This document shows, in pieces, positions 818 through 32,000 of a stretch of 32,000 nucleotides of DNA. The stretch spans positions 240,001 through 272,000 of the forward strand of contig AP027131.1 of NCBI GenBank assembly GCA_027925225.1. Reading direction: 5' to 3'. Position numbers and translations under genes: made by a program. The stretch's first letter is position 1, and every line of letters starts with the position of its first letter. The notes beneath the pieces were generated by a model, which saw only the letters and a list, made by a program, of their open reading frames with translations, had not been told where the DNA came from and made no database searches. Origin of the DNA: Candidatus Saccharimonadota bacterium. Lineage in GTDB: Bacteria; Bacillota_I; Bacilli_A; Mycoplasmatales; Hepatoplasmataceae.

Positions 818-1993
818 ATGTTTGGAAAATTTAATGTTGTACCTTATTCTAGAAATCCAATTCAAATTAAACAAGATTTAGAAAATAAATGGTTAGATTT
901 AAATCCAAAATATCAGAGAGGATATGTTTGATCGAAAAGATTTCAAAGAGAATTAATTATTAGTATTTTTTCTGGATATCCTATTGGAACGGTAGTAGTA
1001 AGAGGACAAAGCAAAACAAGAAATCTTGAATTAGTTGATGGTCAACAAAGAATAAAAACAATTATAAGATTTATGGATGATGAATTAACATTAAATTCAA
1101 CCCATTCTGTAAAGGCCAAAGAAATTTTGAATTTAAGAGGAGAAAATTATGATAAATATCAAAAAAATATTTATAAATTTTCTAATTTAACTTTAAGAGA
1201 TCAATCTGATTTTAAAAATTCTTTTTTAATTTCTGGTTTTCAGATTCAATATGATAATGATGAAGAAGTAAAAAATTATTTTGATAAAATACAAACTCAA
1301 GAAAAACTGTTAGCAGGAGAATTAATAAATAATTTACCAAATAATATTTTTGATGAAATATTTGAGGAAAATGAAAATAATATTGATAATTTTTGTAAAT
1401 TTATTGGATTTAATAATAATAGAAAAAATTTTCAAAAAGCTTTATTTAATTCAATTGGATTTAATCTTGAATATATTGAATTAGGAATTATTGACGACAA
1501 ATTAATTAAATTTGTTAATGATTTATCTTCTAAAGAAATGAGAAAAAATTTAAAATATGATGAAGTACTTTTTAAAGAAAAAATAAAGGAATCATTATTT
1601 CAAATATTAAAACTTAATAAAAATATAGATATTAATAAAAAAGCAAAACAAAGATTTTTAAAATTATTGTTTTTATTAATTAATTATTTAAATATGAATG
1701 ATTCTATTAATTTTGAAAGACTTGCACTTATTAACAGAAATTTATCAGAATATAATACAAAATATGCAAGAAAAAATGAAAATAAATTTATTGAAAATTT
1801 AATTACAGATGGAATAATTAGTAATCAGAATGATTTTCATTTATTTGAAGATTTATATGATTTATTTTATAAAACACAAAAAAATGATAATGAAGTCAAA
1901 GCTTTATTAAAATACTGATCAAATGAAATAAAACAAAATTCATATTTAGAATCATTAAATGATTTTAATGCAATACAAAAGGATTTGAATTAA
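818..1993 (+). CDS. DUF262 (ParB/GmrSD N-terminal-like) domain protein, 391 aa, with no recognisable DUF1524/HNH C-terminal domain
   Basis: ATG at 818 sits 6 nt after aggag (807-811). The N-terminus reads NPKYQRGYVWSKRFQRELIISIFSGYPIGTVVV...LELVDGQQRIKTIIRF, the DUF262 QR..VW / DGQQR signature. The gene joins ORF 1073-1918 through TGA at 938-940 and 1916-1918 and ends at TAA 1991-1993. Confidence 0.7.
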
Positions 1994-3782: not shown

Positions 3783-4697
3783 ATGAATGATTTTCGTGAA
3801 GAAAAATTAGTAATGAAATTTAAAGATTTTTCTAATTTAGTCGATATTAGCACTTTAGGTGTAGAAATCCACTTTTTAGAAATTTTCAAAGATGAATTAA
3901 TAAATATTTTTAATTTAGATTCAGATGATATAAAAATAAATATTCCAGAAAAAAAAGAAGGTTCTGTAATTCTTGTTTTTTCAATTATTGTTACTGTAAC
4001 CCCTATTGCAATTAAGGTTTATTTTTTATTAAAAAAATATTTTGCATTTAAAAATTTTTTAAAAGAAAGTTTTAAAAATAATGAAAAAGTAATTCTTATT
4101 AAAACAGAAAATTCTAAAGGGTATATGGAATATGTTATTGGTAATGAAAAAAAAGATAATACTTTCACTGTTCCAAGATTTATGTATAAATGATTGTATG
4201 AAAAGAAATTTTTAAATAATGATAGAAAACTTTGAAAAGAATTATCGATTAAAAAAACTGATTTTAGTATTTCTGATGGAATTGAAGAATATTCTTTTAA
4301 TAATAATGATATAAGATATATTAGTAAGAATTTTTTAAAAATTAATAAAAATGTATCAATAATTAAAGAAATTACTATATTAGAAGAGAAAAAATTAATA
4401 ATAAGTATTATTTCTATTAATTATGAAGATAAAAAAATAAAATTTTATTATCCTCCCCTTAAGAAGAAAATAATTGCAAAAATAATTGACCCAAATTTTA
4501 ACCCAAATAATCAATACTTTTCTTCTGGAAAATATATGAAAATTGTTTTAAAAATAATTCGTAATAAATTAACTAATTTTGATGAATATGAAGATGAATA
4601 TGAAGTTACACAAATAATTGATTCAAATTTTAAATATTATGGAACAAATATATTAGAAATGACAGAACAAGCTGAAGAATTAGAAAAAAAATATTAG
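3783..4697 (+). CDS. Hypothetical single-pass membrane protein, 304 aa, no recognised family
   Basis: Track ORF 3783-4193 continues in frame through TGA (4191, 4233) to TAG 4695-4697. One central hydrophobic helix (SVILVFSIIVTVTPIAIKVYFLL) and an acidic C-terminus. Confidence 0.6.
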
Positions 4698-9698: not shown

Positions 9699-11273
9699 AT
9701 GAAAGAAAAAATATCTTTATTAAAAATAAAACTTGGTTTATCTTTTTCTGAAAAAGAAAAAAATATTTATGTAAGTAAAGTAGATTTTGAAAATCTAATA
9801 GAAAATTTTAAGGATAAGGAGTGAATTAAAAATTATTTTAAAAATTATTTTTTTTATAAAAAAACTTTAAAATACTCTTTTCCAACAAGCTTTTTCTTTA
9901 TCTGAAAAGCAAATGGAAGAAAAACAAATAAAATTTACTTTAAATTTAGAAAAGATGAAATAAAAGAAAGAATTTATAGCGGTGAATTTAATTCTGAAAA
10001 AGAGGGAGATATTTTTGAAGAAAATTTTAAATTAATAAAAACTTATGTTGAATCTCTTTCAAAATTAGTTAATCATTTTTTTGATTTAGTTGATTTTTCA
10101 AAAGAAGAGTGTGATGTTAGATTAAACATTTTAGATACTTCTTTATCTTTAGAAAAATATGTAGAAAGTATTTTGAATTTTTATAAAGATATTAAGAAAA
10201 ATAAGCTTTTTCAAAAAATTTATGTTGTTAATACAAAAATTTTAAATAGCATAATAAAAAATTCTAAAATAGTTTCAAAAGATGAATCATTTATTATAGA
10301 TTCAAAAATTAATAATTCAAATTCAAATACAAATAAAATTGAAATTATTTCTTCTAAATTAAAAGATATAAGAAATATAAGAGATTTGTCCGAAGGGAAA
10401 CAAGTAATTAAAAATTATATTATTAAATCATCATTTATTGAAAATTATTGTTTTTCAAGCGAAAAATTTAATCCTAAAATTAATTTTGTAAAAGCTTCTA
10501 AATTAAAATCAGTGGAAAATTCAATAATAGAAGATTCTTATATTAGTTTTACAAAAATAGATACAGAAAAAACAGAAATATCAAAATCAAAATTAATAGG
10601 AAATAGAATTGATTTTAAAATAAAAAACAAAGTACAAATTATTAAAAATTATGAAATTAATTTTTCTTCTATAACAAATATAAGTTTTGTAGGAGATGAA
10701 AATAATGATGAAAAATATTTTGTTAGAAAATCAAAATTATTTTCATTAAATGAATCAATTTTTGAAAATACAAATGCTAAATATTCTTTAGTTGAAACAA
10801 ATAATTTATTTAATATAAAAAATTCAAATATTTTAAGAAGTAGAAGTAATTGAATTTTAAAAGATGAATCACAAATAATAAAAGATTATTTTATTATTAA
10901 TTCAAATGTTAAAAATGTTTCTTTTTCTTCTGATGAGTTTGAAAACATAAAAGAAATGTCTTCTTCGCTTGAAACAGCAAATAATTTAATTGATAAATCA
11001 CTTGGTAAAATTAGTCCTGATATTATAAATAAAAGTTTAAATTTAATTGGAGATGAAATTAAATCTACTGAAAATGTCTTAAAAAATTCTTCTATCAAAT
11101 CTTTTAATTTATCTAATATAGATAATTCTTATATAAAGAGAGTTAAATTTGAAGTAAATAAACTTAAAATATCTGGATCTAAATTAATAAATATTAAAGG
11201 TAATTGATATTCTCCTAACGGAGTTCAAAATATAATAAATTATTCATTAAGTAATTCTACAATTAAAACTTAA
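9699..11273 (+). CDS. Hypothetical cytoplasmic repeat-rich protein, 524 aa, with a degenerate short-period Ile/Ser/Asn repeat pattern (beta-solenoid-like)
   Basis: ATG 9699 follows aagga. Track ORFs 10173-10853 and 10956-11207 share its frame and are joined via TGA codons. It ends at TAA 11271-11273. No signal peptide or TM segment is visible. Confidence 0.65.
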
Positions 11274-13905: not shown

Positions 13906-15195
13906 CTATCAAATATTTTCTATGTTTATTGTTTGTTCTTTTTTAGGGCCTACCGAAAACTGAACTACAGGAACGCCGGTATAATTTTCAATTGCTTCTA
14001 AGTATTTTTTTGCATTTTTTGGTAAATCATAAAATGATTTTACTTTGCTAATATTTTCATTTCATCCAGGTAAAATAACATAATTTACTTTTACATCATT
14101 ATAAATTCTTTCAGAAGCCGGAATTGATTCTAAGATATGTTCTCCTATCGTATAATTTATTCCAATTTTTAATTCTTTAATTCCTGTAAGTACATCTAAA
14201 AGAGTAATAGAAATACCAGTAAGTCCACTTACTCTTTTTGCGTGTTTTATTAAGGTAACATCAAATCATCCAATTCTTCTTGCTCTTCCTGTTGTTGTTC
14301 CGTATTCTTTTCCAACTTCTCTTATTTTTTTTGATATTTCATTTTCAAATTCAGTTGGAAAAGCACCTTTACCAACTCTTGTAACATAAGCCTTTGTAAC
14401 TCCTATTGTTTGAGAAATAGAATATGAAGGTATACCTACATTAAGCGGAATAGAAGAAGAGGTTGGTGAAGAAGAAGTAACAAAAGGATAAGTTCCATGA
14501 TCTAAACAAAGAAGAATTCCTTGTGCACCTTCAAAAAGAACTTTTTTTCTTTTTTCTAAAGCTTTAAACACTAAAAGCGAAGAATCGACAACATAATGTT
14601 TTATTTTTTCTCTTGCTTCTAATGCAAATTTATAAGTTTCTTCAAAATCAATTTTTTTATCTATTTTCATTGCTTTAAAGATTCTATTTTTTTCTTCTAT
14701 GTTTTCTTGTAATTTTTCTTTTAGGTAATCATCATCATAAAGATCAATAATTCTTATTCCAATTCTTGCGACTTTATCTGTATAGGCTGGACCTATTCCT
14801 TGTTTTGTTGTTCCAATAGTAGATTTTCTGTTTTCTTCTTGCAAAGCATCTATTTCTTTGTGATAGGGGAAAACAATATGAGCTCTATCTGAAATAAATA
14901 GTGAAATGTCTACTATTCCTGCTTTTTTTAATCCTTCAATTTCATTTAATAAACCTTTAAGATCGATAACAACACCATTTGAAAGAACATTTTTAACATT
15001 TGTATTGAATATACCAGAAGGAAGGAGATGGAGCCCAAATCTCTCGTTATTATAGATTATAGAATGCCCAGCATTTCCTCCGCCTTGGTAACGAACAACA
15101 TAATCTGCTCTGCTTGCAAAATAATTTGTTATTTTGCCTTTTCCTTCATCGCCTCATTGTGTTCCCACAATAGCAATTGAATTATATTTTTTCAT
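13906..15195 (-). CDS. purA: Adenylosuccinate synthetase, 429 aa
   Basis: MKKYNSIAIVGTQWGDEGKGK, GGGNAGH and TTKQGIGPAY motifs. Track ORF 14266-14844 extends both ways through TGA. Stop TAG at 13906-13908. Confidence 0.95.
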
Positions 15196-15221
15196 TTTTA
15201 TAACCTTATTTTCTTTATTTT

Positions 15222-16511
15222 TTAAAATACTCTTTTATAAATATTATCTACTTCTCTTAAATAATATTTATAATCAAAAAAATTATTTATTTCATCCTTA
15301 TTAAATAATTTATTTATTTCATTATTTTCAAGTATTAAATTTTTAAAATCTTTATTTTCTTTCATTGATTTAAGAGCTAAATTTTGTATTAAGTCATATG
15401 CTTTTTCTCTTGAATATTCTTTTTTTATTAAATTGCTTAATATTCTTTGAGAAAATACTAATCCTTTTGTAATTCATATATTTTCAAACATTTTTTTTTC
15501 ATTTACTATTAATGTTTTTAATGTATAAGAATATCTTTTTAATGCATATTGAATAAGTGTTGTTGCATCAGGAATTATTACTCTTTCTACTGAAGAATGA
15601 GAAATATCTCTTTCATTTCAAAGAGGAATATTTTCATAAGCAGAAAAAACATAACCTCTTAATATTCTAGAAATTCCTGTAATATTTTCTGAAGTTATTG
15701 GATTTTTTTTATGAGGCATTGAAGAAGAACCTTTTTGTCCGGTGCTAAAATATTCTTGTACTTCACCTATTTCGGTACGTTGAAGTGTTCTTATTTCAAT
15801 TGCAATTTTTTCTAATGAATTTCCTATCATAGCAATGCTATGAATATAATTTGCATAAACATCACGTTGGATTATCTGTGTTGATATTTTTGCTGAATTT
15901 ATTTTTAAATTTGAGCAAACCATATCTTGTATATTACTTTTAATGTTTGCAAAATTTCCCATTGAACCAGAGATTTTTCCTGTTTCTATTTCTTCTCTTG
16001 CATTTTTAAATCTTTTAATGTTTCTAGACATTTCGTCATATCAAAGTAATCATTTTAAACCAAAAGATGTAGGCTCTCCGTGAATTCCATGTGTTCTACC
16101 AATTATTGGTGTATTTTTGTATTTATTTGCATTTTCTTTTAAAACTTCTAAAAAAATTAATAATTCCTTTTCTATTTCATTATTTGCTTCTTTAATTAAT
16201 AAAGCATTTGCTGTATCTATTACATCACTTGCCGTTAATTTATAGTGAATTCATTTTTTTTCATCACCTAATTTTTTAGATATTGATCTAGTAAAAGCCA
16301 CTACATCATGTTTTGTTATTTTTTCTATTTCTTCTATTTCTTTTAAATTAATTTTTGCATTTTCTTTTAAAATTTCATAGTCCTTAATTGGAATTACTTT
16401 TATTTTCACAAAAGAATGAATAACTTCTAATTCAACATCTAAGAATTTTTGAAATTTATTTTCTTGAGATCATATTTTTTGCATAACCTCATTAGAATAT
16501 CTTTTTATCAT
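15222..16511 (-). CDS. purB: Adenylosuccinate lyase, 429 aa
   Basis: Fumarate-lyase signature [11 protein letters not shown]. Track ORF 15618-16031 extends through TGA to ATG 16509-16511 and TAA 15222-15224. Confidence 0.95.
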
Positions 16512-16547
16512 ATAGAAATATTATAAGTTATTTTAAATATTAATTTA

Positions 16548-18029
16548 TTATTCAATATCATTAACAATAACAATAAAACTTGAATTTTCATAATCGGGTC
16601 CTATTGGATAATAATATTTATATCCATTTTCTGAATCATAAGTTAAATCTCTAGGAAAAGAGAAATTAAAATCTCCAAAAATCATTTCTTGTGCATAATA
16701 TTCTTCACTATCATATATTCAATCATCTTCATCAGGAAGAACTAAATAATAGGTATAATTCAATGTTCGATTTGTAGTTGCTTTTATATCTGAATTTTGA
16801 TAATAAAGTCCTGGTGTATTGAGAAGTGTAGAATTAATTTCGGAAACTTCTTGTGATTGATAATTTATTTCTTTTTTATCTCATTCATTATGTCCCCCAT
16901 AAGGATCATCAACATTAACTAATATATTTCAATTAAATCCTATTTTTATATTTTTTGTAAACTCCATAAATGATTTAGTATTTTCAACATTTATTTTTTT
17001 CAAATTTATATTAAAAATTAAATAATTATCGCCATAAGCACTTTCTTTGGGATTTACATCAATGCTTTGAACATTTTTTTCATGTATTGATGGTGTAAAA
17101 TAATATGTTTTTTCATCAAATAAATATGAAAAACTAGTTGTTTTATAGTCATTATTTAAAAACATAATTACTGAATCATTTACATCTTTATATCCATAAT
17201 TAATTGGCATTTCAACTTCATTATCAGAAAATTTAAATTCTTGTGTGTATAAACCATCTCCTTTTGTGCTTGTTATTTTACTTGCGCTACTTATTGGAAT
17301 TAATTTATATTTTTCTTTAATTAAAAGTTTTTCATTGTTTGTATCATAAAGATCATAATACTCTGCATAATGATAAAGAGAATAAGAAGAATAATCATAA
17401 AAATTAAAACCATCTCCATCAGAATATGTAATTTCAATTTTATTATTTATTCCTTTTTTTGCATTTATAATTTTTGGATAACTTTGATCTCCATTATCAT
17501 AAATCGTTCGACTTGTTTTTATTTTATAATCTTGTTCATATGTTGTATTAATAATTGTATTATCAATATTGTTTATTGATAATGTTGGATTTAAAATATA
17601 ATAAATATTATCACTTTTTAAATATTCAGGATATATTGAATAATTATAATAAACAGGTAATTCAACATAAAAATAAGTTTCTAGATTTAAGTTTTTAATT
17701 TTAAATAAATTTTTATTTATATAAAAAGAAACATCATGATAACTATCATCATTTTCAGATTTAATTTGATAACTAAATGTTATTGAATTAATTTGAGAGA
17801 TATCTCCATTATAAATTCCTGTTGTAATTAAAATTGTCATATCATCTTCAGCATATTCTCTACCCATATAATCTAATGTTTCATGATTAAAATATGAAGA
17901 AATAATTTGAAAATTTTCATCTTCACTAATATTTTTATTTTTAAAAGAATTATTTATAAAAGGTAATCCTATTATCAAAAATATTGGTAAAAAGATAAAA
18001 GATAGTATTTTTTTATTTATTTTTTGCAT
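16548..18029 (-). CDS. Cassette gene A, copy 1: signal-anchored Asn/Tyr-rich secreted or surface protein, 493 aa, no recognised family
   Basis: Track ORF 16929-18029 continues through TGA codons (16929, 16881, 16719) to TAA 16548-16550. I checked every codon from 16548 to 16929. Hydrophobic N-terminus MQKINKKILSFIFLPIFLIIGLPF, with no lipobox Cys. Confidence 0.75.
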
Positions 18030-18103
18030 AGCTATTTCCTTTTTTATTATTTCTTAAATTAAAGACAACATCATTATAAAATACTTTTTTTATACTTAAT
18101 ATA

Positions 18104-20148
18104 TTTAATTAAAAAAAACACAAATGTAGATATATAAAATAGTGAAATAATTAAAGATAAAATTACTATTAATTTTTTATTTTTTGTTTTTATCGATATA
18201 TTCTCATAATTATTTGGATAAATATAATCATTAAAATATGAATAAGATCAATCATATTTATAATCATTATTTAATTCATTTATTGCATAAATATTAAAAT
18301 TACTATATTTAGTATTATTTTCTAAATTTGTTAAAGTATATTCATATTGATTTTCATAAATTATAGAATTACTAATTAAATTTTCTTCTTTTAAACTATC
18401 ATATTCATTATTATTTGAGTCTTTATAAGTAATTCTTAAGTTATTGGCTTGAATTTTTGAAACATCAGAATATGTAATTTCAAATGTAATTGAATTATTT
18501 TTTATTTTCTTAATTTTTATGTTTTCTATATTTACATTTGAAAAATCAGTTACATAATTTTTTTTATTTAAAAAATATTTTTCATTATATTTAAAATTTA
18601 ATTTACTTAATGAAAAATTCATATTTATATATATATTATTTTCCTCAAAAGTTGGTATTTCATAAATTGCTTCTATATTATTTTTATAATTTATAAAATT
18701 TATTTTAGAATAATATAATTTTTTTGAATATTTTTTAATTTTATTATTTTGATTGTCATATAATGAATAATTAAAATTAATTTCCTTTATTAAATTTAAA
18801 TTCCCATTTTTAGTATTATTTCAAATTTTATTAGAATGATAAAAAACATCTAAATAATATTTGTTTCCTTTTTTTGTAATTTTTGAATCAATTACATCAA
18901 TATTTAATTTATTAAAATTTTTTTCAAAATTTATTTCTTTAAAAAAATACTTATAACCAGTGGTACTTAAATAATTTTTATTATCTTTATAATTTTTAAC
19001 AAAAGAATTGTTTAAATAATCATATTCAAAATATCCACTATTTATAAAAACGAAAGATGATAAGTCATTTGTATTATTTTTTTCAAAATTTATTTCATAT
19101 TTATAAATATCCAAATTTTCCATATAAATTGGATTTGTTAAAACTTTATATTCTTCTTTTCCATTATTTTTATAAGACAAAACTAAATTATTAGCTAATT
19201 GATAATTTATTTCATCATTATATTTTATAAAGATGTAAAAAGAATTATCATAATATTCATTTTCTTCATAATAAACATTTTCAATTTGAGGGGGGTGGAT
19301 TGGGGTAATTATTTTGTAATTATCAACTCACTCATTTAAAAATATTTCTTCATTATTATAAAAAAAAGAAAAATTATAATAAATCATTCCTTCTTCCTTT
19401 GAAATATTATTTATATAAATTGTTTCATTATATCAATTACTATTTCCGTATTTGTAATAGTTATCATTATATTCAAAATTTAATTGGTAATTATTTTCAT
19501 TTTTATCATTATTATAGGATCTGTAATCTGCATATATTTTTAAATTATTTAAAAATTCTTTAATTGTTATTTTTTTAGGAATTAAAACATTTAAGTTAAT
19601 TTCAGCTATATTATTATTTAAAAAAATAAAATCATTTATTATAATTTTTACATTATTTAAATTAAAGTTTTCTTCATAATTTAGACTAAAACTATTAATA
19701 CATTTTTGTATTGGTTTTAATAAATAAGTTGAAAAATATCCATTTTCATAGTAAATATTTACTTCAAATGAAAAATCAGGATTTAATTTATATAAATTTT
19801 CTAAATTATTTATTTTAATATTATTTATATTTAGTTTAATAATAAAAAAATGATTATGAAGGTATTTGTTTACATAATCATTTTTTGTTACATTGTTAAT
19901 TAATAATATTTTATTTTTGCCATTTGAATAATTAATATTATTTAATTTTTCTATTATATGTATTGAATCATTATCCGATATAAGAGAATATTCAATATTT
20001 ATATTTCAACTTTCAATATTTAAAATAGAATTAATTGTATTTTATTTCTATTTTGGTTATTAACAGCATAACCCACAAAAGAAATACTTGAAAGCGTAAT
20101 CAAAAATATTAAAGAAATAAAAAGAAAAGGAGTAAAAAATTTTCTCAT
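18104..20148 (-). pseudogene. Cassette gene B, copy 1: disrupted paralog of 22753-25104
   Basis: A 42-codon leader ORF (20020-20148, MRKFFTPFLFISLIFLITLSSISFVGYAVNNQNRNKIQLILF*) is in a different frame from the 645-codon body (18104-20041). The body has no upstream ATG. About 85 codons present in copy 2 are missing. The C-terminus is truncated after an A9 run (18110-18118). Confidence 0.7.
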
Positions 20149-20264
20149 TGTTACTTAACACCACCCAAATTTGTATATTTTTTTGTTATTGTTTTATATT
20201 TAATTAAATCTCTAAGTACATTATTTATAGCAAAATTATTTTATTAAAATATTAAAAATTTAAA

Positions 20265-20924
20265 TTAATCAATAAGTAATGATATTTCTTCTTTTCATCT
20301 TTTAAAGTCATCTTTTCCATAAGGCGTTTCTAATGCTTTTGGTAAGTTTATTAATTTTGGGTGAAATACAATTTTCTTTAAAGCTTCAAGTCCTATCTCT
20401 CCTTTTCCAATATTTGCATGTCTATCTTTGTTAGATCCTAATTCATTTTTTGAGTCATTTATATGCATTCCTTTTAAATAATGGAGTCCTATTATTTTGT
20501 CAAATTCATTTAAAACTTCATCAATATTTCTAATATCATATCCTCCATCTCAAATATGACAAGTATCCATTACTACGCCAATTCTTTTTTTGTTTTCCGC
20601 TAAATCTATTATTTCTCTTATTTCATTGAAATTTTTTCCAATATAATTTTCTTTTTTCATCATTGTTTCAATACAAAGTATTACATTACTATTTTTTGTT
20701 TTTTCAATTATTTCATTTGTCCCAAAAGCGCATCTTTTAATTCCCTCTTCTCTTTTTCTAAAAGAAACTGGGTGAAAATTAAAATATTTAAGTCCCATTT
20801 TTTCCATTAATTTCACATCTTCTGTATAAGAATAAACAGTAGCATTAAAAATTTTTAAGTCTTCATCATTATTTGCTTTTTTAATTAATAAAGCATTTGC
20901 TGTATCTATTACATCACTTGCCAT
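20265..20924 (-). pseudogene. Chimeric purB(codons ~93-110)::nfo(codons ~82-284) open reading frame; 5'-truncated endonuclease IV copy
   Basis: Product [33 protein letters not shown]...[12 protein letters not shown]...LLID*. The first 15-17 residues match purB ([20 protein letters not shown]) and the rest matches nfo. It lacks the N-terminal third of Nfo, including the VHAP His. Confidence 0.8.
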
Positions 20925-21188
20925 TAATTTATAATGAATTCATTTTTTTCATCACCTAATTTTTTTGATATTAATCTAGTAAAGGCTACTACATCATGTT
21001 TTGTTATTTTTTCTATTTCTTTTAAATTAATTTTCGCATTTTTTTTAAAATTTCATAGTCCTCAATTAGAATTACTTTTAATTTAACAAAAGAATTAATA
21101 ACTTCTAATTCAACATCTAAGAATTTTTGAAATTTATTTTCTTGAGATCATATTTTTTGCATAACCAAATTAGAATATCTTTTATCAT
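20877..21188 (-). pseudogene. purB 5' fragment (codons 1 to ~110), decayed
   Basis: Aligns to 16188-16511 with 1-nt homopolymer indels (one just after the start codon) and a 9-nt deletion of one ctatttctt repeat unit. The reading frame is broken. Confidence 0.85.
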
Positions 21189-21230
21189 ATAAAAATATTA
21201 TAAGTTACTTTAATATTAATTTAATTATGG

Positions 21231-22700
21231 TTAATTTATTATTGGTATTATTAGATTATCATTTTCATAGTCTGGAGAAAATAAATAATAATATTCATAT
21301 CCAGATTTTGAATCATAATTTAGCATTGATGGAAAAAATAAGCAAAAATCACTAAAAATCATTTTATTTGCATATGTTTGTTCATCTTTATATATTCAAT
21401 AATTTTCATCAGGAAGAACTAAATAATATGTGTAATGTAACATATTATCACTTGTATTTATTATGTCTGAGTTTTGATAATAAAGTCCTGGCATATTGAG
21501 AAGAGAAGAATTTATTTCAGATACTTCTTGTGCTTCGTAAGTTACACTTTTGCTATCTCATTCATTATGTATGCCATAAGAATCTTCTACATTTAATAAA
21601 ATATTTCAATTAAATCCTATTTTAATATGCTTTGTAAATTCTTTATATGATGAATTATTATTTGCATCAATTCTATTTAAATAAATATCAAGTTTAAAAT
21701 AATTAGGATTACCAATTTTTTTATTACTATTTAATGTTATATTTGAAATATTTTTTTCATAAACAATAGGAGGATGAAACACAGTATTAGAAGATGAATT
21801 AACTAATGCATAACTAATTGATTGATAATTTTCATTTAAAATCAAGAATAAAGAATTGTTAACAGATTTGTAACTGTAATTTAAAGGCGGATCAATTTCA
21901 TTTTCAGATAATTTAAATTCTTGTACATATAAACCATCAAATAATTTATCTTCTATTTTTTTTGCTTTGCTTATTGGAGTTAATTTAGTAAAATTTTTTA
22001 ATAATAAATTTTCATTATTTGTATCATAAAGATCATAAAATTCTTCATAATGATAAATTGAAAAAGATGAATAATCAAAAAAATTAAAATTATCTCCGTC
22101 AGAAAAAAGGACTAACATTTTTCCTGCATTTTCTACTTGAACACCTTCAATCTTTGGATAACTTTGATCTCCATTATCATAAACTGTTTCACCTGGTATT
22201 ATTTCATAATCTTGTTCATAGGTTGTACTAACAATTGTTCCATCAATATTATTTATTAATAATGTTGGATTTAAAATATAGTAATATGTTCCACTTTCTA
22301 AATAATTAAAATATGTTGAATAATTATAATAAATGGGCAATTCAACATAAAAAAAAATATTTGAAGACATGGATTTAATTTTAAAGGAATTTTTATCTAC
22401 ATTAAAAGAGACATTATGATATTCGGTATCATTTTCAGACTTAATTTGATAATCAAAAGTTATTGAATTAATTTGAGAAACATCTCCACTATATATACCT
22501 TTTGTTATTAATGAAGTCATAAATATATCTGAATCTACTTTGCCATCGTAAAGCAGTTCATCAATATTAAAATAAGAAGATATAATTTTAAAATCATTAT
22601 TTTCATTAATATTATTTTTCTTAAAATTAATATTTTTAAAAGGTAAATTAATTATTATTAAAAATAATGGCAAAAAAAGAATTATGATTTTTTTTTTCAT
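21231..22700 (-). CDS. Cassette gene A, copy 2: signal-anchored Asn/Tyr-rich secreted or surface protein, 489 aa
   Basis: Track ORF 21606-22700 continues through TGA to TAA 21231-21233. N-terminus MKKKIIILFLPLFLIIINLPF. Conserved blocks shared with A1 include DNGDQSYPKI, YDLYDTNNE, KIGFNWNIL, HNEWD, PGLYYQNSDI and YTYYLVLPDE. Confidence 0.75.
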
Positions 22701-22752
22701 TTTTTTTATATTTATTTCCTTTTTTATATTTATTATTTAAAATTCAAAATTA

Positions 22753-25104
22753 TTATAAAATACTTTTTCTGTATTTAATATACTTAATTAAAAAATATAT
22801 AAATGTAAATATATATATAAGTAAAATTGATAAAGATAAAACAATTATTAACATTTTATTTTTTGTTTTTATTGAAACATTTTTATAATCTTGTGGATAG
22901 ATAGAATTATAAAAATATGAAAAATTTCAATCATATTTATAATCACTGCTTAATTCATCTGATATATAAATATTAAAATCTTCATATCTAGTATTATTTT
23001 TTAAATTAATTAAAGTATATTCATATTGATTTTCATAAATTTTTGAATTACTTATTAAATTTTTTTCTATTAAAGTGTTATATTCATTGTTATTTGAATC
23101 TTTATATGTAATTTTTAAATTATTAGCTTGAATTTTTGAAATATCAGAATATGTTATTTCAAATGTAATAGAATCATTTTTTATTTTTTCAATTTTTATA
23201 TTATTTATATTCGAACTATAAAAACTAGTTAAATATATTTTTTTAGATAAAAAGTATATTTCATCATATTTTTCATTTGATTTATTTAATGAAAAATTCA
23301 TATTTACATATATATTATTTTCTTGAAAAGTTGGTATTTCATAAAGAACTTCTATATTATTTTTATAATTTATAAAATTTATTTCAGAATAATATAATAT
23401 TTCTGAATATTTTTTAAATTTATTATTTTCATTATTGTATAAAGAATAATTAAAATTAATTTTTTTAATTAAATTTAAATTTCCATTTTTTGTATTATTT
23501 CAAATTTTATTAGAGTGATAAAAAGAATCTAAATAATATTTATTTCCTTTTTTTATAATTTTTGAATCAACAACATAAATGTTTAATTTATTTGATGAAA
23601 CTTCTTTTAATTGCAAGGTTTTAAAAATATATTTATAACCAGTAGTGTTTACATAATTATTATTATCATAATTTTTAGTAAAAGAATTATTTAAAAAATC
23701 ATATTCAAAATATCCGCTATTTATAAAAACAAAAGAAGATAGCTCGCCAATCTCATCAAATGTTATTTCATATTTATAAATATCAAAACTTTTTATATAA
23801 AATGGATTTTTTAAAAAAATATATTCACTTTTATCATTATCTTTATAGTATAAAACAAGATCATTTGCTAATTGATAGTTTATATTTTTATCATATTTTA
23901 TATATATATAAAAAGAATTTGCATAATATTCATTTTCCTTATAATAAATACTTTTTATATTTGGAGGATATATGGGTGTTATTATTTTATAGTTATCAAC
24001 TCACTCATTTATAAAAATTTCATTAGAATTATAAAAAAAGGAAAAATTATAATAAATTATTCCTTCTTCTTTTGAAAAATTATTTATATAAATAGTTGCA
24101 TTATATCAATTGCTATTTCCATATTTATAATAATCATTATTGTATTTAAAATTTAATTTATAATTATTAACATTTTTATTATTATCATAAGATTTGTAAT
24201 CTGCATAAATTTTTAAATTACTTAAAAATTCTTCAATTTTTATTTTTTTAGGAAGCAAAATATTTAAATTAATTTCAATAATATTATTATTCTGAAAAAA
24301 AAAATTATTTATTATAATTTTTGGATTATTTAAATAAAAATTATTTTCATAGCTTAGATTAAAACTATTAATACTTTTTTCAAAAGATAAAAAATAAAAA
24401 GAAATATTTTTTTCTATATTTGTTTGAATGGAAATATTTAAAAAACTATCTTCATCTAAATAATAATGTTGTGAAATTTTATTGGCCTTAATATTGTTTA
24501 ATTTGTATTTAAATATAAAAAAATGATTATTAATATAAGAATTTAAATAATTGTTATTTGTATTAATATCAATTTTTATAATTTCAATATTTTTTATTTT
24601 ATTTATATTTTCTGGGGTAATAATTCTATGTATTTTAATTTTATTTTTATTATTTTCTTTAGAAATTAAACAATAATTAATATTAATTAAAAAATCAATA
24701 ATTCCTTCTTTTTTTATTAAGTTTAAATCTTGATTTAAATAAACAAACATATAAGATGTTAGTGAATATATATCTTCAAATTTTTCATTAGATTCATAAG
24801 AAGCATAGTAATTTCAAAGAACTAAATCTGGGTTATCATTTAATCATTTTTTAATTTGAGAATAATTCATATTCTCAACACCCTTATTTATTATATTTTC
24901 TTTATTTTCTTTAATTTTTTCTATCTGAATTTTATGGTTAAATATAAAGGCATTTTTTACCTGTTCTCCCATATCAATATTTTGTTCTGTATCAACATTA
25001 TTTCTATTTTGATTATTAACAACATAACCTATAAAAGGAATACTTGAAAATGTAATAAAAAATATTAAAGAAATAAAAAGAAAAGGAGTAAAAAATTTTC
25101 TCAT
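22753..25104 (-). CDS. Cassette gene B, copy 2 (intact): 783-aa surface protein with an N-terminal signal/anchor helix and a C-terminal TM anchor; the membrane-proximal domain looks FN3/Ig-like
   Basis: Track ORFs 24844-25104, 24106-24750 and 22927-23301 are one frame. I checked every codon in 23302-24105, 24751-24843 and 22753-22926 and found only TGA. N-terminus MRKFFTPFLFISLIFFITFSSIPFIGY. C-terminus MLIIVLSLSILLYYIFTFIYFLIKYIKYRKSIL*. Confidence 0.75.
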
Positions 25105-25222
25105 TGTTACTTAACACCACCCAAATTTGTATATTTTTTTTGTTATTGTTTTATATTTAATTAAATCTCTAAGTACATTATTTATAGCAAAATTATTTTA
25201 TTAAAATATTAAAAAATTTAAA

Positions 25223-26077
25223 TTAATCAATAAGTAGTGATATTTCTTCTTTTCATCTTTTAAAGTCATCTTTTCCATAAGGTGTTTCTAATGCTTTTGG
25301 TAAGTTTATTAATTTTGGATGAAATACAATTTTCTTTAAAGCTTCAAGTCCTATCTCTCCTTTTCCAATATTTGCATGTCTATCTTTGTTAGATCCTAAT
25401 TCATTTTTTGAGTCATTTATATGCATTCCTTTTAAATAATGGAGTCCTATTATTTTGTCAAATTCATTTAAAACTTCATCAATATTTCTAATATCATATC
25501 CTCCATCTCAAATATGACAAGTATCCATTACTACGCCAATTCTTTTTTTATTTTCCACTAAATCTATTATTTCTCTTATTTCATTGAAATTTTTTCCAAT
25601 ATAATTTCCTTTTTTCATCATTGTTTCAATACAAAGTATTACATTACTATTTTTTGTTTTTTCAATTATTTTATTTATCCCAAAAGCACATCTTTTAATT
25701 CCTTCTTCTCTTTTTCTAAAAGAGCCTGGATGAAAATTAAAATATTTAAGACCCATTTTTTCCATTAATTTCACATCTTCTGTATAAGAATAAACAGTAG
25801 CATTAAAAATTTTTAAGTCTTCATCATTATTTGCCAAATTTCCAATTAAAGGTGCATGAACAATAATATTTTTAATATTAAAATTTATTTTTTTTGCAAA
25901 TTCCTTTGCTTCTTTTAGATTATCTTCATCTAAAATTAATGTTTTTTTATAAGCTCTTGAATTTGAAATATACATCGCACCAGATGTTGCTTCTATTTCA
26001 TTTAAGTCATGTAAAGTACCTAATAATTGTGTTTTTTGTTTAAAGGATACATGAGCACCAATTAAAGGTTTTTTCAT
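25223..26077 (-). CDS. nfo: Endonuclease IV (AP endonuclease), 284 aa
   Basis: [41 protein letters not shown] and [26 protein letters not shown] motifs. Joined through TGA at 25508. TAA at 25223-25225. Confidence 0.9.
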
Positions 26078-28773: not shown

Positions 28774-29055
28774 TTTTTATTTTAAAAAAAGTATACAAGA
28801 ATAATATTCTATTTTAATTAAACATTAGAAATTTTGATTTATTTTCTTTATTTTTTTAAAATTAAAAGAAATCAATATAATTCAATCGCAACAAATTAGA
28901 AATATTATATTTATTTAATATATATTAATAATTTAAAGCAAATTGTAATATATTTTTTTTGAGGGTAATTAATCCTTTTATTAAGTAATATAAACACTTT
29001 ATTACATAAATTTTTATTTTAAAAATATAAATACTATTGGAAAAGAGTCAAAATT

Positions 29056-29790
29056 ATGGATATATCATTAGGCACAATATTTTTATCAGAAATGTTGGGA
29101 ACATTTTTCTTGATTTTAATAGGTTGTGGTGTTAACGCAAGTGTTAATCTTAAAAAAACCCATTCAAGTAATTCGGGTTGAATTGTAATTTGTTTTGGTT
29201 GAGCAATGGGAGTATTTGCCGGAGCATCTGTTGCTTTTGCTTCTGGGGGACATTTAAATCCTGCTGTTACTTTAGCAATGTGAGTAGAACAAACAATTGA
29301 TGTTGGTCAAGCATTTATGTACTTTTTAGCAGAGCTTGTTGGAGCATTTCTTGGAGCTTTACTTGTTGCATTTTTATTTTGAGGACATTTTAAAGCAACA
29401 GAGGAAAAAGAAAAAGTTGCAGGAACTTTTTATACATCTCCTGCAATTAGAAATTGACCTCGTAATTTAGCAACTGAATTTTTTGCTACATCAGTTCTTA
29501 TTTTACCAATATTAGTTTCTGGTAATACTGATATAACACCAGGCTTTACAATGTATGGTCCATTATTTGCTGCATTGTTAGTACTTGGAATTGGATTAAC
29601 TTTAGGTGGACTTACTGGATATGCAATAAATCCAGCAAGAGATTTAATGCCTAGATTAGTACATACTGTTGTTGCGCTTCCTAATAAAGGAGGAAGTAAT
29701 TGAGATTATGCATGAGTTCCAACTCTAGGGCCATTAATGGGTTCACTTTTTGCAGTTGGAATGTATGAATTAATTTTAGTTACACTTTAA
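29056..29790 (+). CDS. glpF: Glycerol uptake facilitator (aquaglyceroporin), 244 aa
   Basis: Two NPA boxes (HLNPAVT and INPARD) and six hydrophobic segments. Several in-frame TGA explain its absence from the ORF track. Confidence 0.9.
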
Positions 29791-29808
29791 TTAAGGAAAG
29801 AAGAAGGA

Positions 29809-31305
29809 ATGAAAAAAAAATACATATTATCATTAGACTCTGGGACAACATCTACAAGAGCAGTAATTATTGATGAAAAAACAAATGTTGTTTCGATAGG
29901 TCAAAATGAATTTGCTCAATATTTTCCAAATCCTGGATGAGTTGAACATGATGCAAATGAGATTTATGCAAATCAAATTTCTGTTGTAATTCAAGCAATT
30001 CAGAAAAAGGAAATTGATATTAAAGATATTAAGGGAATTGGAATTACAAATCAAAGAGAAACAGTTTTAATTTGAGATAAAAAAACTGGAATTCCTGTTT
30101 ATCATGCAATTGTTTGACAAGATAAAAGAACTGCAGATTATTGTGAAAAATTATCTAAAGATGAAAAAATATTAAAAATGGTTAAAGAAAAAACAGGCTT
30201 AGTTTTAGATCCCTATTTTTCAGGAACCAAAATTAAATGACTTTTAGATAATGTAAAAGGTTTAAGAGAAAGAGCAAGAAGAGGTGAAGTTTTTGCTGGG
30301 ACAATTGATACTTGATTAGTTTGAAAATTAACAAAGGGAAATTCTTTTTATACTGATTATACAAATGCTTCAAGAACTTTACTTTTTAATATTATTGATT
30401 TAAAGTGAGATGATGAATTATTAAAACTTTTTGATATTCCAAAGGAAATTTTACCTGAAGTAAAAAATTCTGCTGATAATTATGGAATAACAGAAGTTGA
30501 TGCATTTAAAGGAATTCCAATTTTATCAGTAATTGGAGATCAACAATCTTCACTTTTTGGACACAGGTCAAAAATAGGAGAAATGAAAGCAACTTATGGA
30601 ACTGGGGCTTTCTTGATGTTAAATACTGGAGAAAAAGTTGTTTATTCAAAGAGTGGACTACTTACAACAATAGCATTAGGTTTAAATGGGAAAATTACAT
30701 ATGCATTAGAAGGATCGATTTATATAGCCGGGAATGCTTTAAAATGAATTAAAGATGAACTTCATCTTATTCAAGAATATGAACAAATTGATTATTATTT
30801 AAAAGATGAATTTGATACAAAAGGAGTAAGTGTTGTTCCTTACTTTGTTGGAGTTGGATCTCCATATTGGAATACAAAAGCAAGAGGTATTATTACTGGT
30901 ATTACAAGAGGAGTGAACAGAGGAGATATTATTAGAGCCACTGCTGTTTCTATACCTTTACAAACTTATGATATTTTTAGAGCTTTTGAAAAAGATTATA
31001 ATAAAAAAATATTAAAAATGTCAATAGATGGAGGAGTATCTAATTCAATCAATTTAATGCAATTACAAGCAAATATTTTAAATGTAAAATTATATAATCC
31101 AAAATCTAGTGAAACTACAGCATTGGGTGCTGCATTTCTTGCTGGTCTTAAAGCTAAAATTTGAGATAATCAAGCACATTTGGATAAAATAATTACTTAT
31201 GAAAAAATATATGAACCAAAATTTGATGAAAAATTAAATGAAAAAATTATTGAAAATTGAAATTCTTCAGTTGAATTAGCACTAAAATGAAATAAAAATA
31301 ATTAA
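29809..31305 (+). CDS. glpK: Glycerol kinase, 498 aa
   Basis: [46 protein letters not shown] and [13 protein letters not shown] motifs. An aaggaaagaagaagga RBS region precedes ATG 29809. TAA at 31303-31305. Confidence 0.95.
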
Positions 31306-31316
31306 AGGATTACTAT

Positions 31317-32000
31317 ATGAATAATAAAAATAATGCAAAAATATATGACATTTTAATAATAGGTGGAGGAATTATAGGAATAAGTATTGCTAAAGAATTC
31401 ATCGATAATAAAAAAAGTGTTTTTTTAGTTGAAAAAGACCCCAAAATATTACAAGAAACTTCTTCTCATAACAGTGGAGTAATTCATGGTGGTTTTGATG
31501 CGACTCCTGGAACATTAAAAGCAAAATTTAATGTTGAAGGCCGCCATCTTTATGAAAAATTATATTTTAAAAAAGAAACATCTTTTTTATGACAAAATTC
31601 TGATTCTTATATTTTGGCTTTTGATAAAGAAGAAGAAGAGGAATTAGAAAAACTTTATAATCAAGGAATTAAAAATGGCCTTAAAGCAAAAGAAATGGCA
31701 ATAATTTCTAGAGAAGATATTTTTAAAGTTAATCCTTATATAAATAAAGATGTTAAAAAAGCATTAGTTTGTTATACATCAAAATCAATTAATCCTCAAG
31801 AATTTGGGAATTTTTTATTTCTAAAAGCAAAAGAAAAAGGATTAGAATATAGTTTAAATTTTAAAGTTAATGAAATTTTTAAAAAAAATGATTATTGAAT
31901 TGTTAAATCTGAAGATGGAACAAAAATTAAAGCAAAATTCATTGTAAATGCTTCTGGAGTTTGAGCGGAAGAAATTGCGAAACTTGTTGAAAAAAATCCA
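31317..32000 (+). CDS. glpO: FAD-dependent glycerol-3-phosphate oxidase/dehydrogenase, 5' part (continues beyond the window)
   Basis: N-terminal dinucleotide fold YDILIIGGGIIGISIAKEF and SSHNSGVIHGGFDA. Track ORFs 31317-31592 and 31614-31898 are in the same frame, joined via TGA. Confidence 0.8.

Follow-up and report, generated by a model that had tools for sequence, protein, structure and literature searches.

A lineage-restricted pair of putative surface-protein genes, conserved in order and tandemly duplicated, in ‘Candidatus Hepatoplasma vulgare’

In this work we describe two adjacent genes, here called B and A, of ‘Candidatus Hepatoplasma vulgare’ Av-JP, a mollicute of the pill bug Armadillidium vulgare with a metagenome-assembled genome of 662 kb (PMC10928387). 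They lie in a stretch of 32,000 nucleotides (contig AP027131.1, positions 240,001 to 272,000), hereafter the window, whose numbering is used below unless another contig is named. Gene B (HPAVJP_2440, 22753..25104, minus strand) encodes a type I surface protein of 783 amino acids and gene A (HPAVJP_2430, 21231..22700, minus strand) a secreted or N-terminally anchored protein of 489 amino acids that is predicted to be all-beta. The family is very narrow and patchy, yet its B-then-A pairing is conserved. We give a probability of about one half to the reading that B and A are a conserved two-gene module for a lineage-restricted surface complex, in which B would tether A and which would be used for attachment or ligand recognition.

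The conservation of the pair is best seen in a second organism. An exhaustive HMMER scan of 1.84 billion representative proteins with a profile of B matched only B′, the second copy of B in the window, and one protein of 789 amino acids (P0006, here Bx), aligned end to end with an E-value of 8e-34. Bx (L081 10001-12370) lies on a 66-kb contig, L081, from the Logan assembly of run SRR24015491, with a G+C content (GC) of 23.5% and genetic code 4. It is followed by Ax (L081 12360-13844), a homologue of A with 494 amino acids, which is 27% identical to A over about 440 amino acids and matches the A profile with an E-value of 1e-20. Ax overlaps Bx by 11 nucleotides, compared with a spacer of 52 nucleotides between B and the start of A in H. 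vulgare, and in both organisms an AAGGA ribosome-binding site for A or Ax is found inside or after B or Bx. The two genes are probably co-translated. Bx keeps the signal peptide, the C-terminal transmembrane (TM) helix and the basic tail of B, and Ax, which lacks a TM helix, carries a short hydrophobic region resembling a signal peptide; this fits a secreted partner held by B. The earlier note on this DNA, made from the letters alone, had treated the pairing of A and B as more than an accident, and finding an overlapping B-A pair at a different locus in a second organism bears this out.

The members of the pair are only 27-29% identical between the two organisms and their surroundings differ. 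On L081 the pair is flanked by peptide deformylase (def) upstream and by rsmD-coaD-gmk-PP2C-PknB downstream, versus nfo and purB in the window. H. scabrum and H. crinochetorum Ps share synteny with this downstream block, their proteins being 44-62% identical to those of L081, and the UvrB, Gmk and TrpS proteins of L081 have no cluster-mates at 90% identity; the organism that carries this contig is thus an unsequenced, fairly distant Hepatoplasmataceae-like mollicute. Such divergence of the housekeeping proteins, together with the different flanks, implies that the two genes have long been together or have moved as a unit.

Beyond these two organisms the family could not be extended. Word-seeded searches of 5.8 billion proteins returned only the H. 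vulgare paralogues of A and B, and adding Ax to the A profile brought in no more members of that family. Both profiles drew a blank in metagenome scans, as did the A profile in a scan of species-representative genomes, a collection that does not include the H. vulgare genome. The corresponding genes of H. scabrum and H. crinochetorum Ps run purB-purA-nfo, and no homologue of A or B lies within 10 kb. It had been asked whether the purB-nfo interval is empty in relatives; there is indeed no A or B near these genes, but the gene order itself differs, being nfo-[B-A]x2-purB-purA in H. vulgare versus purB-purA-nfo in H. scabrum (L001 7327-10852) and H. crinochetorum Ps (L002 7348-10852). That nfo is on the other side of the pur genes in H. 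vulgare (13906-26077) suggests that this spot was duplicated or rearranged earlier. Both relatives have a DEAD-box helicase and an RCC1-like surface protein upstream of rsmD. The RCC1-like protein of H. scabrum (L001 13866-15602, 578 amino acids), two genes upstream of rsmD, has a signal peptide, a C-terminal TM helix and a charged tail.

Reading frames were called under genetic code 4, where TGA encodes tryptophan; table 11 breaks the long genes at TGA into short open reading frames (ORFs), and under code 4 the window, with a GC of about 20%, becomes a compact gene set. The two adjacent minus-strand genes of 783 and 489 amino acids were recovered exactly as they had first been described, with three in-frame TGA codons in A and six in B, and each is a 100% match to an NCBI protein entry. 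At the local base composition stops have a frequency of 0.091 per codon (about one per 11 codons), and the chance of an open frame as long as A (489 codons) is about 1e-20 and as long as B (783 codons) about 1e-33. Rates of non-synonymous (dN) and synonymous (dS) substitution, estimated by the method of Nei and Gojobori under code 4, give a ratio (omega) of 0.54 between A and its adjacent paralogue A′ (dS 0.58, dN 0.32) and of 0.31 between the C-terminal halves of B and B′ (dS 0.48, dN 0.15); taken together, the estimates of omega for B against B′ span 0.31-0.5. A and B are real coding genes under relaxed purifying selection, each with an orthologue, Ax or Bx, in the second organism.

Hydropathy gives both proteins the topologies that had been proposed for them. 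B starts with a hydrophobic segment or signal peptide (amino acids 4-29, 25018..25095, minus strand; Kyte-Doolittle window 2.2), about 97% identical to that of B′, and continues with an ectodomain of about 720 amino acids, a C-terminal TM helix (amino acids 748-776, 22777..22863, minus strand; hydropathy 2.85; kept in Bx at amino acids 739-773) and a basic cytoplasmic tail, KYIKYRKSIL. In A the only hydrophobic segment is at amino acids 3-24. Both are rich in Asn, Tyr, Lys and Ile, as had been noticed: B contains 17% Asn, 14% Ile, 11% Tyr and 11% Lys, and A 12.5% Asn, 10.6% Ile and 9.8% Tyr, with Tyr at 6% across all proteins of the window. The most conserved motif of B in its alignment with Bx is NSGYF[ED]YD (amino acids 462-469, 23698..23721, minus strand), part of a block, V.{2}NSGYF.YD.{3}NSF.KNY, that is invariant between the species alongside other common blocks.

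The last 120 or so residues of the B ectodomain had been read as a fibronectin type III (FN3) or immunoglobulin (Ig) sandwich. When this membrane-proximal segment (amino acids 630-747, 22864..23217, minus strand) is isolated, the Pfam fn3 model (PF00041) falls short of its gathering score of 25 bits, reaching 23.6 bits in B′ (E 6e-5) and 16 bits in B (E 0.014). There was no fn3 match in a full-length scan of B, in the corresponding segment of Bx or in a profile search of the PDB. The AlphaFold2 (AF2) model of B has beta strands here, at a predicted local distance difference test score (pLDDT) of about 50, against a mean of 35 for the whole protein. The sub-threshold scores favour the proposed identity and the missing matches in Bx and the PDB do not, leaving an FN3 fold plausible and unproven for this segment.

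The A family consists of A, A′, a third copy elsewhere in the genome (A″, HPAVJP_1560) and Ax. A″ is equidistant from A and A′, with 57-58% identity to each. At about 26% identity, the four proteins share a signature, D-x-G-D-Q-x-Y-P-K-I (amino acids 175-184 of A, 22149..22178, minus strand), that is invariant in 4/4 members, along with the invariant blocks TY..DY, Y.LYD, GLYY and L.Y.YYL.LP. The AF2 model of A is all-beta with a mean pLDDT of 52 and two stretches near 80; the models of both A and B are monomers and were built from the few sequences available. For the A model, Foldseek matches were limited to generic tandem Ig/FN3-like ectodomains and to small beta-sandwiches of the ApaG and LEA14 types, with TM-scores of at most 0.2 on the query. 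The modelling that had been recommended as a check thus yielded low-confidence structures and generic beta-sandwich matches, and the confident match to a characterised family that would have spoken against a new module did not appear. Similarly poor models have been reported for other H. vulgare ORFs (PMC10928387).

A run of ten adenines (22688..22697, minus strand), one of four runs of at least 10 nucleotides in the window, comes directly after the start codon of A (MKKK). It is preceded, before the start codon, by a run of eight (22688-22707 in all), and A′ has no A10 run. Judged from its sequence, the A10 tract is a possible candidate site for a slipped-strand on/off switch.

Searches for known families and motifs were otherwise empty, in line with what had first been noted. 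Pfam and NCBIfam gave no match at E<=1 for A, A′, A″, Ax, B or Bx, and PDB sequence and profile searches and PHROGs gave nothing beyond noise for A, B or their paralogues. No His or Cys is invariant across the A family, and neither family, A or B, has a conserved G.SG, GxSxG or HExxH. Comparison of A with B by hhalign matched only their hydrophobic segments, self-BLASTP found no internal repeats in either protein and Tandem Repeats Finder only short low-copy arrays. As had also been noted, there is no lipobox: A, A′, A″, Ax and B have no Cys in their N-terminal 40 residues. Bx does have Cys25, in the context LILFC and at a lipobox-like position (L081 10001-10090), which is not conserved in B or B′; the mode of N-terminal anchoring may differ between H. 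vulgare and the L081 organism.

How did the second copy in the window arise? Self-alignment reveals a repeat of about 4.69 kb, with copy 1 at 20900-25834 and copy 2 at 16211-20876. At the junction is an 11-nucleotide microhomology, GCAAATAATGA (20866..20876, minus strand), which occurs exactly three times on the minus strand, the other two exact matches being in purB (16177-16187) and nfo (25824-25834). The upstream boundary of the repeat is at nucleotide 243 of the functional nfo (endonuclease IV; 25223..26077, minus strand; Pfam AP_endonuc_2, 1e-46), and the downstream boundary is at about nucleotide 345 of the functional purB (adenylosuccinate lyase; 15222..16511, minus strand; Pfam Lyase_1 and ADSL_C). 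The three sites imply that an ancestral nfo-B-A-purB was duplicated from nucleotide 243 of nfo to about nucleotide 345 of purB, and the current order, nfo-B-A-[purB′::′nfo]-B′-A′-purB, is the result of one microhomology-mediated tandem segmental duplication. Between the copies are two pseudogenes. A 5′ remnant of purB (20866..21188, minus strand), downstream of A, is broken across three frames and 91.9% identical to nucleotides 1-335 of purB with 12 gap positions. A 3′ fragment of nfo (20265..20876, minus strand) differs from nfo at 14/612 nucleotides and retains a partial Pfam AP_endonuc_2 match. They meet in a chimeric ORF of 219 amino acids (20265-20924) that begins with purB sequence and continues into nfo.

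The earlier note had placed a second B-A pair at 16548-20148. The coordinates are right and A′ (HPAVJP_2390, 16548..18029, minus strand; 493 amino acids) is an intact paralogue, 57% identical to A, but the pair is not intact, as B′ (HPAVJP_2400, 18074..20148, minus strand; annotated with 437 amino acids) is disrupted. B′ and B share about 97% identity in the 5′ region and signal peptide, and the ORF that encodes the signal peptide of B′ (20148-20020) is one frame off the open body (20029-18074). The lesion consists of several multi-base indels: deletions directly after the signal peptide make B′ a net 277 nucleotides shorter than B and remove approximately amino acids 36-120. The body of B′ is open for about 650 codons with an omega of 0.3-0.6. 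A body that is both open and constrained indicates that the inactivation is recent, or one nucleotide change away from reversal. The description of a tandemly amplified cassette is overstated: this is one segmental duplication, in which pieces of the flanking nfo and purB were copied too, and only one B has stayed whole.

Identity is uneven along the repeat, with the non-functional flanks far more alike than the gene bodies under selection. This is the opposite of what a single old duplication predicts, and leaves two candidate explanations. The functional nfo and purB may have homogenised the flanks through gene conversion, or a divergent allele may have replaced one cassette body. Between the nfo fragment and the functional gene (20265-20876 versus 25223-25834) the differences are mostly synonymous (dS 0.084, dN 0.01, omega 0.12). 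An omega of 0.12 is odd for a non-functional copy and hints that the fragment has been converted repeatedly from a selected allele or has recently descended from one. Recent horizontal transfer from the co-resident H. crinochetorum was considered as a source of the near-identical nfo fragment and rejected, its Nfo being only 66-70% identical. Mosaicism among the three A paralogues is marginal (p = 0.04 and 0.18 in two tests), and we do not claim recombination between them.

Under our favoured reading, B would display a beta-rich ectodomain, with a predicted helical N-terminal region before it and an FN3-like end close to the membrane, on a single TM helix with a short basic tail. The all-beta A, with a signal peptide or N-terminal anchor only, would be held at the cell surface by B, and the pair would mediate attachment to, or recognition of, the host (hepatopancreas) or an environmental ligand. 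We infer the tethering from the tight translational coupling, the complementary topologies, the higher variability and copy number of A and the ectosymbiotic lifestyle. The greater variability of A (omega 0.54 versus 0.31, and three intact A genes versus one intact B) is as expected of a distal exposed subunit. A role in host interaction is suggested by topology and lifestyle: Hepatoplasmataceae are regarded as ectosymbionts, and their beta-sandwich surface proteins are candidate adhesins (PMC10928387). The module would be fast-evolving with its copy number in flux, given the tandem duplication, the disruption of B′, the third A elsewhere and the gene conversion or allele replacement. Several observations count against a tethered complex. 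The profiles of A and B are unrelated to each other, and the models are poor, so that statements about the fold, including a beta-sandwich character of A and B, are weak. In addition, A′ and A″ persist without an intact adjacent B, hence A may act alone, and H. scabrum and H. crinochetorum, closer relatives that occupy the same kind of niche, lack the module, so it is not essential for symbiosis.

Of the alternatives, the most durable is that A and B are independent orphan surface proteins, adjacent by descent only and forming no complex, which serve for example as a protective coat, in nutrient capture or in lectin-like binding of dietary polysaccharide. The A copies that lack an intact B partner and the missing sequence relationship between A and B are both natural under this explanation, and the Tyr/Asp/Asn/Gln-rich invariant residues, including those of DxGDQxYPKI, would be as suitable for binding sugar or Ca2+ as for binding protein. 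That said, the B-then-A order is found again, with an 11-nucleotide overlap, at another locus despite the low identity of the proteins, and unrelated neighbours rarely behave in this way. We consider independence unlikely, though to be taken seriously.

More doubtful is a surface-variation system, with one expressed B-A pair and with B′, A′ and A″ as donors for recombination or phase switching, as MgPar/RepMP are for MgpB/MgpC and P1. There are several diverged copies to draw on, including the 5′-disrupted B′ with its open and constrained body; the very uneven identity along the repeat implies gene conversion or allele replacement; the A10 tract is well placed right after the start codon of A; and phylogenetically informative sites cluster weakly among the A paralogues (p = 0.04). 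However, this mosaic signal is marginal, with the three A copies simply equidistant, and each of A′ and A″ is a whole gene that encodes a signal peptide of its own rather than a partial cassette. The usual selective driver is also missing, as the host is not known to have antibody-based immunity.

That a mobile element or prophage carries the pair as cargo, for instance as a receptor-binding or exclusion protein, is very unlikely. This would account for the patchiness and the differing insertion sites, with the genes in H. vulgare and a distant relative, at different loci, and not in H. scabrum or H. crinochetorum. The GC of the A/B region (0.14-0.18) is lower than that of the neighbouring genes, and gene B (23000-25000), at 14-15%, is the most AT-rich stretch. 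Neither locus, however, has an integrase, transposase or flanking repeats, PHROGs has no meaningful match, a viral fold search returned only generic Ig-like matches with TM-scores of at most 0.2, and the spacers to the housekeeping neighbours are just 21-118 nucleotides long.

A binder-plus-enzyme system like MIB-MIP, in which one protein captures a host macromolecule and the other cleaves it, fits the layout only (paired, adjacent, individually anchored, in more than one copy) and is close to refuted, since A and B have no DUF31 or other Pfam or NCBIfam domain and no conserved G-[AG]-S-G, the A family lacks an invariant His or Cys, and isopods are not known to have immunoglobulins. Equally remote is the idea that the ORFs are decaying or spurious, or that the duplication and the B′ frameshift are artefacts of an assembly that was patched manually in some regions and came from an animal also carrying H. 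crinochetorum: B′ is just one nucleotide out of frame with its signal peptide, but Illumina polishing followed an Oxford Nanopore long-read assembly and the indels are multi-base ones, which makes an artefact unlikely, and the ORF lengths, the omega values below one, the conservation across species, the clean 11-nucleotide microhomology and a H. crinochetorum Nfo too divergent to be the source of a 98%-identical fragment all point the same way.

A more elaborate version of the tethered complex can be imagined. B might be a single membrane stalk that is loaded with interchangeable, rapidly diverging A subunits, of which there are three paralogues, with new combinations arising by tandem duplication and gene conversion and possibly by on/off switching at the A10 tract. 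This is speculative and we think it improbable, but if true it would give an invertebrate gut ectosymbiont a combinatorial attachment specificity without adaptive immune pressure.

The pair is of wider use in three respects. Hepatoplasmataceae are uncultured symbionts of woodlice, for which the genome paper named only giant repetitive ORFs and RCC1-like proteins as candidates for attachment; B-A adds a compact conserved surface module that the paper does not discuss (PMC10928387). Antibodies, recombinant binding assays and structural studies can be aimed at the conserved motifs DxGDQxYPKI (A) and NSGYF[ED]YD...NSF.KNY (B) as concrete targets. Finally, the locus is a clean natural case of microhomology-mediated tandem duplication in a 0.66-Mb genome; it contains a datable chimeric pseudogene and bears clear signs that gene conversion or allele replacement came afterwards.

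The remainder of the window can be described briefly. Pfam identifies IleS, Nfo, PurB, PurA, Obg and DeoC as neighbours, all on the minus strand. The setting in a housekeeping array, which had been stressed at the outset, is thereby verified, but it carries little weight because the 662-kb genome is almost wholly housekeeping. A scan for promoters and terminators is uninformative at 20% GC (162 sites versus 157 expected). The glpF-glpK-glpO region (29000-32000) has a GC of 24-32%, compared with about 20% for the window. On the plus strand, 9699-11273 encodes an orphan of 524 amino acids without a Pfam match or signal peptide, in which four degenerate repeats, each about 80-120 amino acids long, end in SKL...Q[IV]IK[ND]Y.I..S....N.SF. 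A protein of 391 amino acids (818-1993, plus strand) with a GmrSD_N (DUF262) domain (E 2.5e-17) is possibly a type IV restriction or defence remnant in this very small genome. Two further orphan ORFs on the plus strand have hydrophobic segments, one of 304 amino acids with no Pfam match (3783-4697) and one of 180 amino acids (164-706).

Paired surface proteins are familiar from other mollicutes. The Nap-type cytadhesin pairs of the pneumoniae group are P140/MgpB and P110/MgpC of M. genitalium, P1 and P40/P90 of M. pneumoniae, and GapA and CrmA of M. gallisepticum. Like B and A, these are encoded by adjacent co-directional genes, are large surface proteins thought to act together, have extra diverged or partial copies elsewhere in the genome and evolve fast. 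In contrast, A and B have no homology to P1/MgpB or MgpC/ORF6 in Pfam, NCBIfam or PDB sequence searches. A C-terminal TM anchor, typical of both Nap partners, is present in B and Bx only and in none of A, A′, A″ and Ax. A and B are also much smaller, their extra copies are whole genes rather than partial repeats and the host is an invertebrate.

The P97/P102 pairs of Mesomycoplasma hyopneumoniae are likewise two-gene units that encode N-terminally anchored surface proteins and occur as several paralogous pairs. They differ from B and A in that there is no detectable homology, A and B lack R1/R2-type repeats, and B is anchored at its C-terminus. Hepatoplasmataceae are the sister family of Metamycoplasmataceae (PMC10928387).

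MIB-MIP resembles B-A in layout, with paired, adjacent and individually anchored surface proteins in several copies. Immunoglobulin, the substrate of MIB-MIP, is not known to exist in isopods. The serine-protease domain of MIP, DUF31, has a conserved catalytic serine motif, G-[AG]-S-G (PMC13459921). Family models find neither of these in A or B, nor a MIB-like domain related to protein M, and A and B have no sequence relative in the PDB, though structures of MIB-MIP and protein M are deposited there. The initial judgement that the pair does not belong to this system is therefore upheld.

Other comparisons lie within the family itself. The beta-sandwich and RCC1-like proteins described by Kawato et al. 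2024 (PMC10928387) are also orphans or near-orphans of Hepatoplasmataceae, with predicted beta-sandwich folds and a proposed role in adhesion. The RCC1-like protein of H. scabrum described above shares the topology of B and lies near rsmD, where L081 carries Bx-Ax. Unlike the giant repetitive ORFs of that study, A and B are of 489 and 783 amino acids and have no tandem internal repeats; unlike the RCC1-like proteins, they have no RCC1 signature, and they show no similarity to those ORFs. A conserved heterologous pair such as theirs is not among the features described in the paper. Nor do they resemble bacterial lipoproteins, as the A family and B are without a lipobox Cys.

Orphan, fast-evolving surface proteins are the norm in Mollicutes. 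In summary, what is new here is the protein family and not the kind of system: B-A is a lineage-restricted form of the paired-surface-protein theme of mollicutes.

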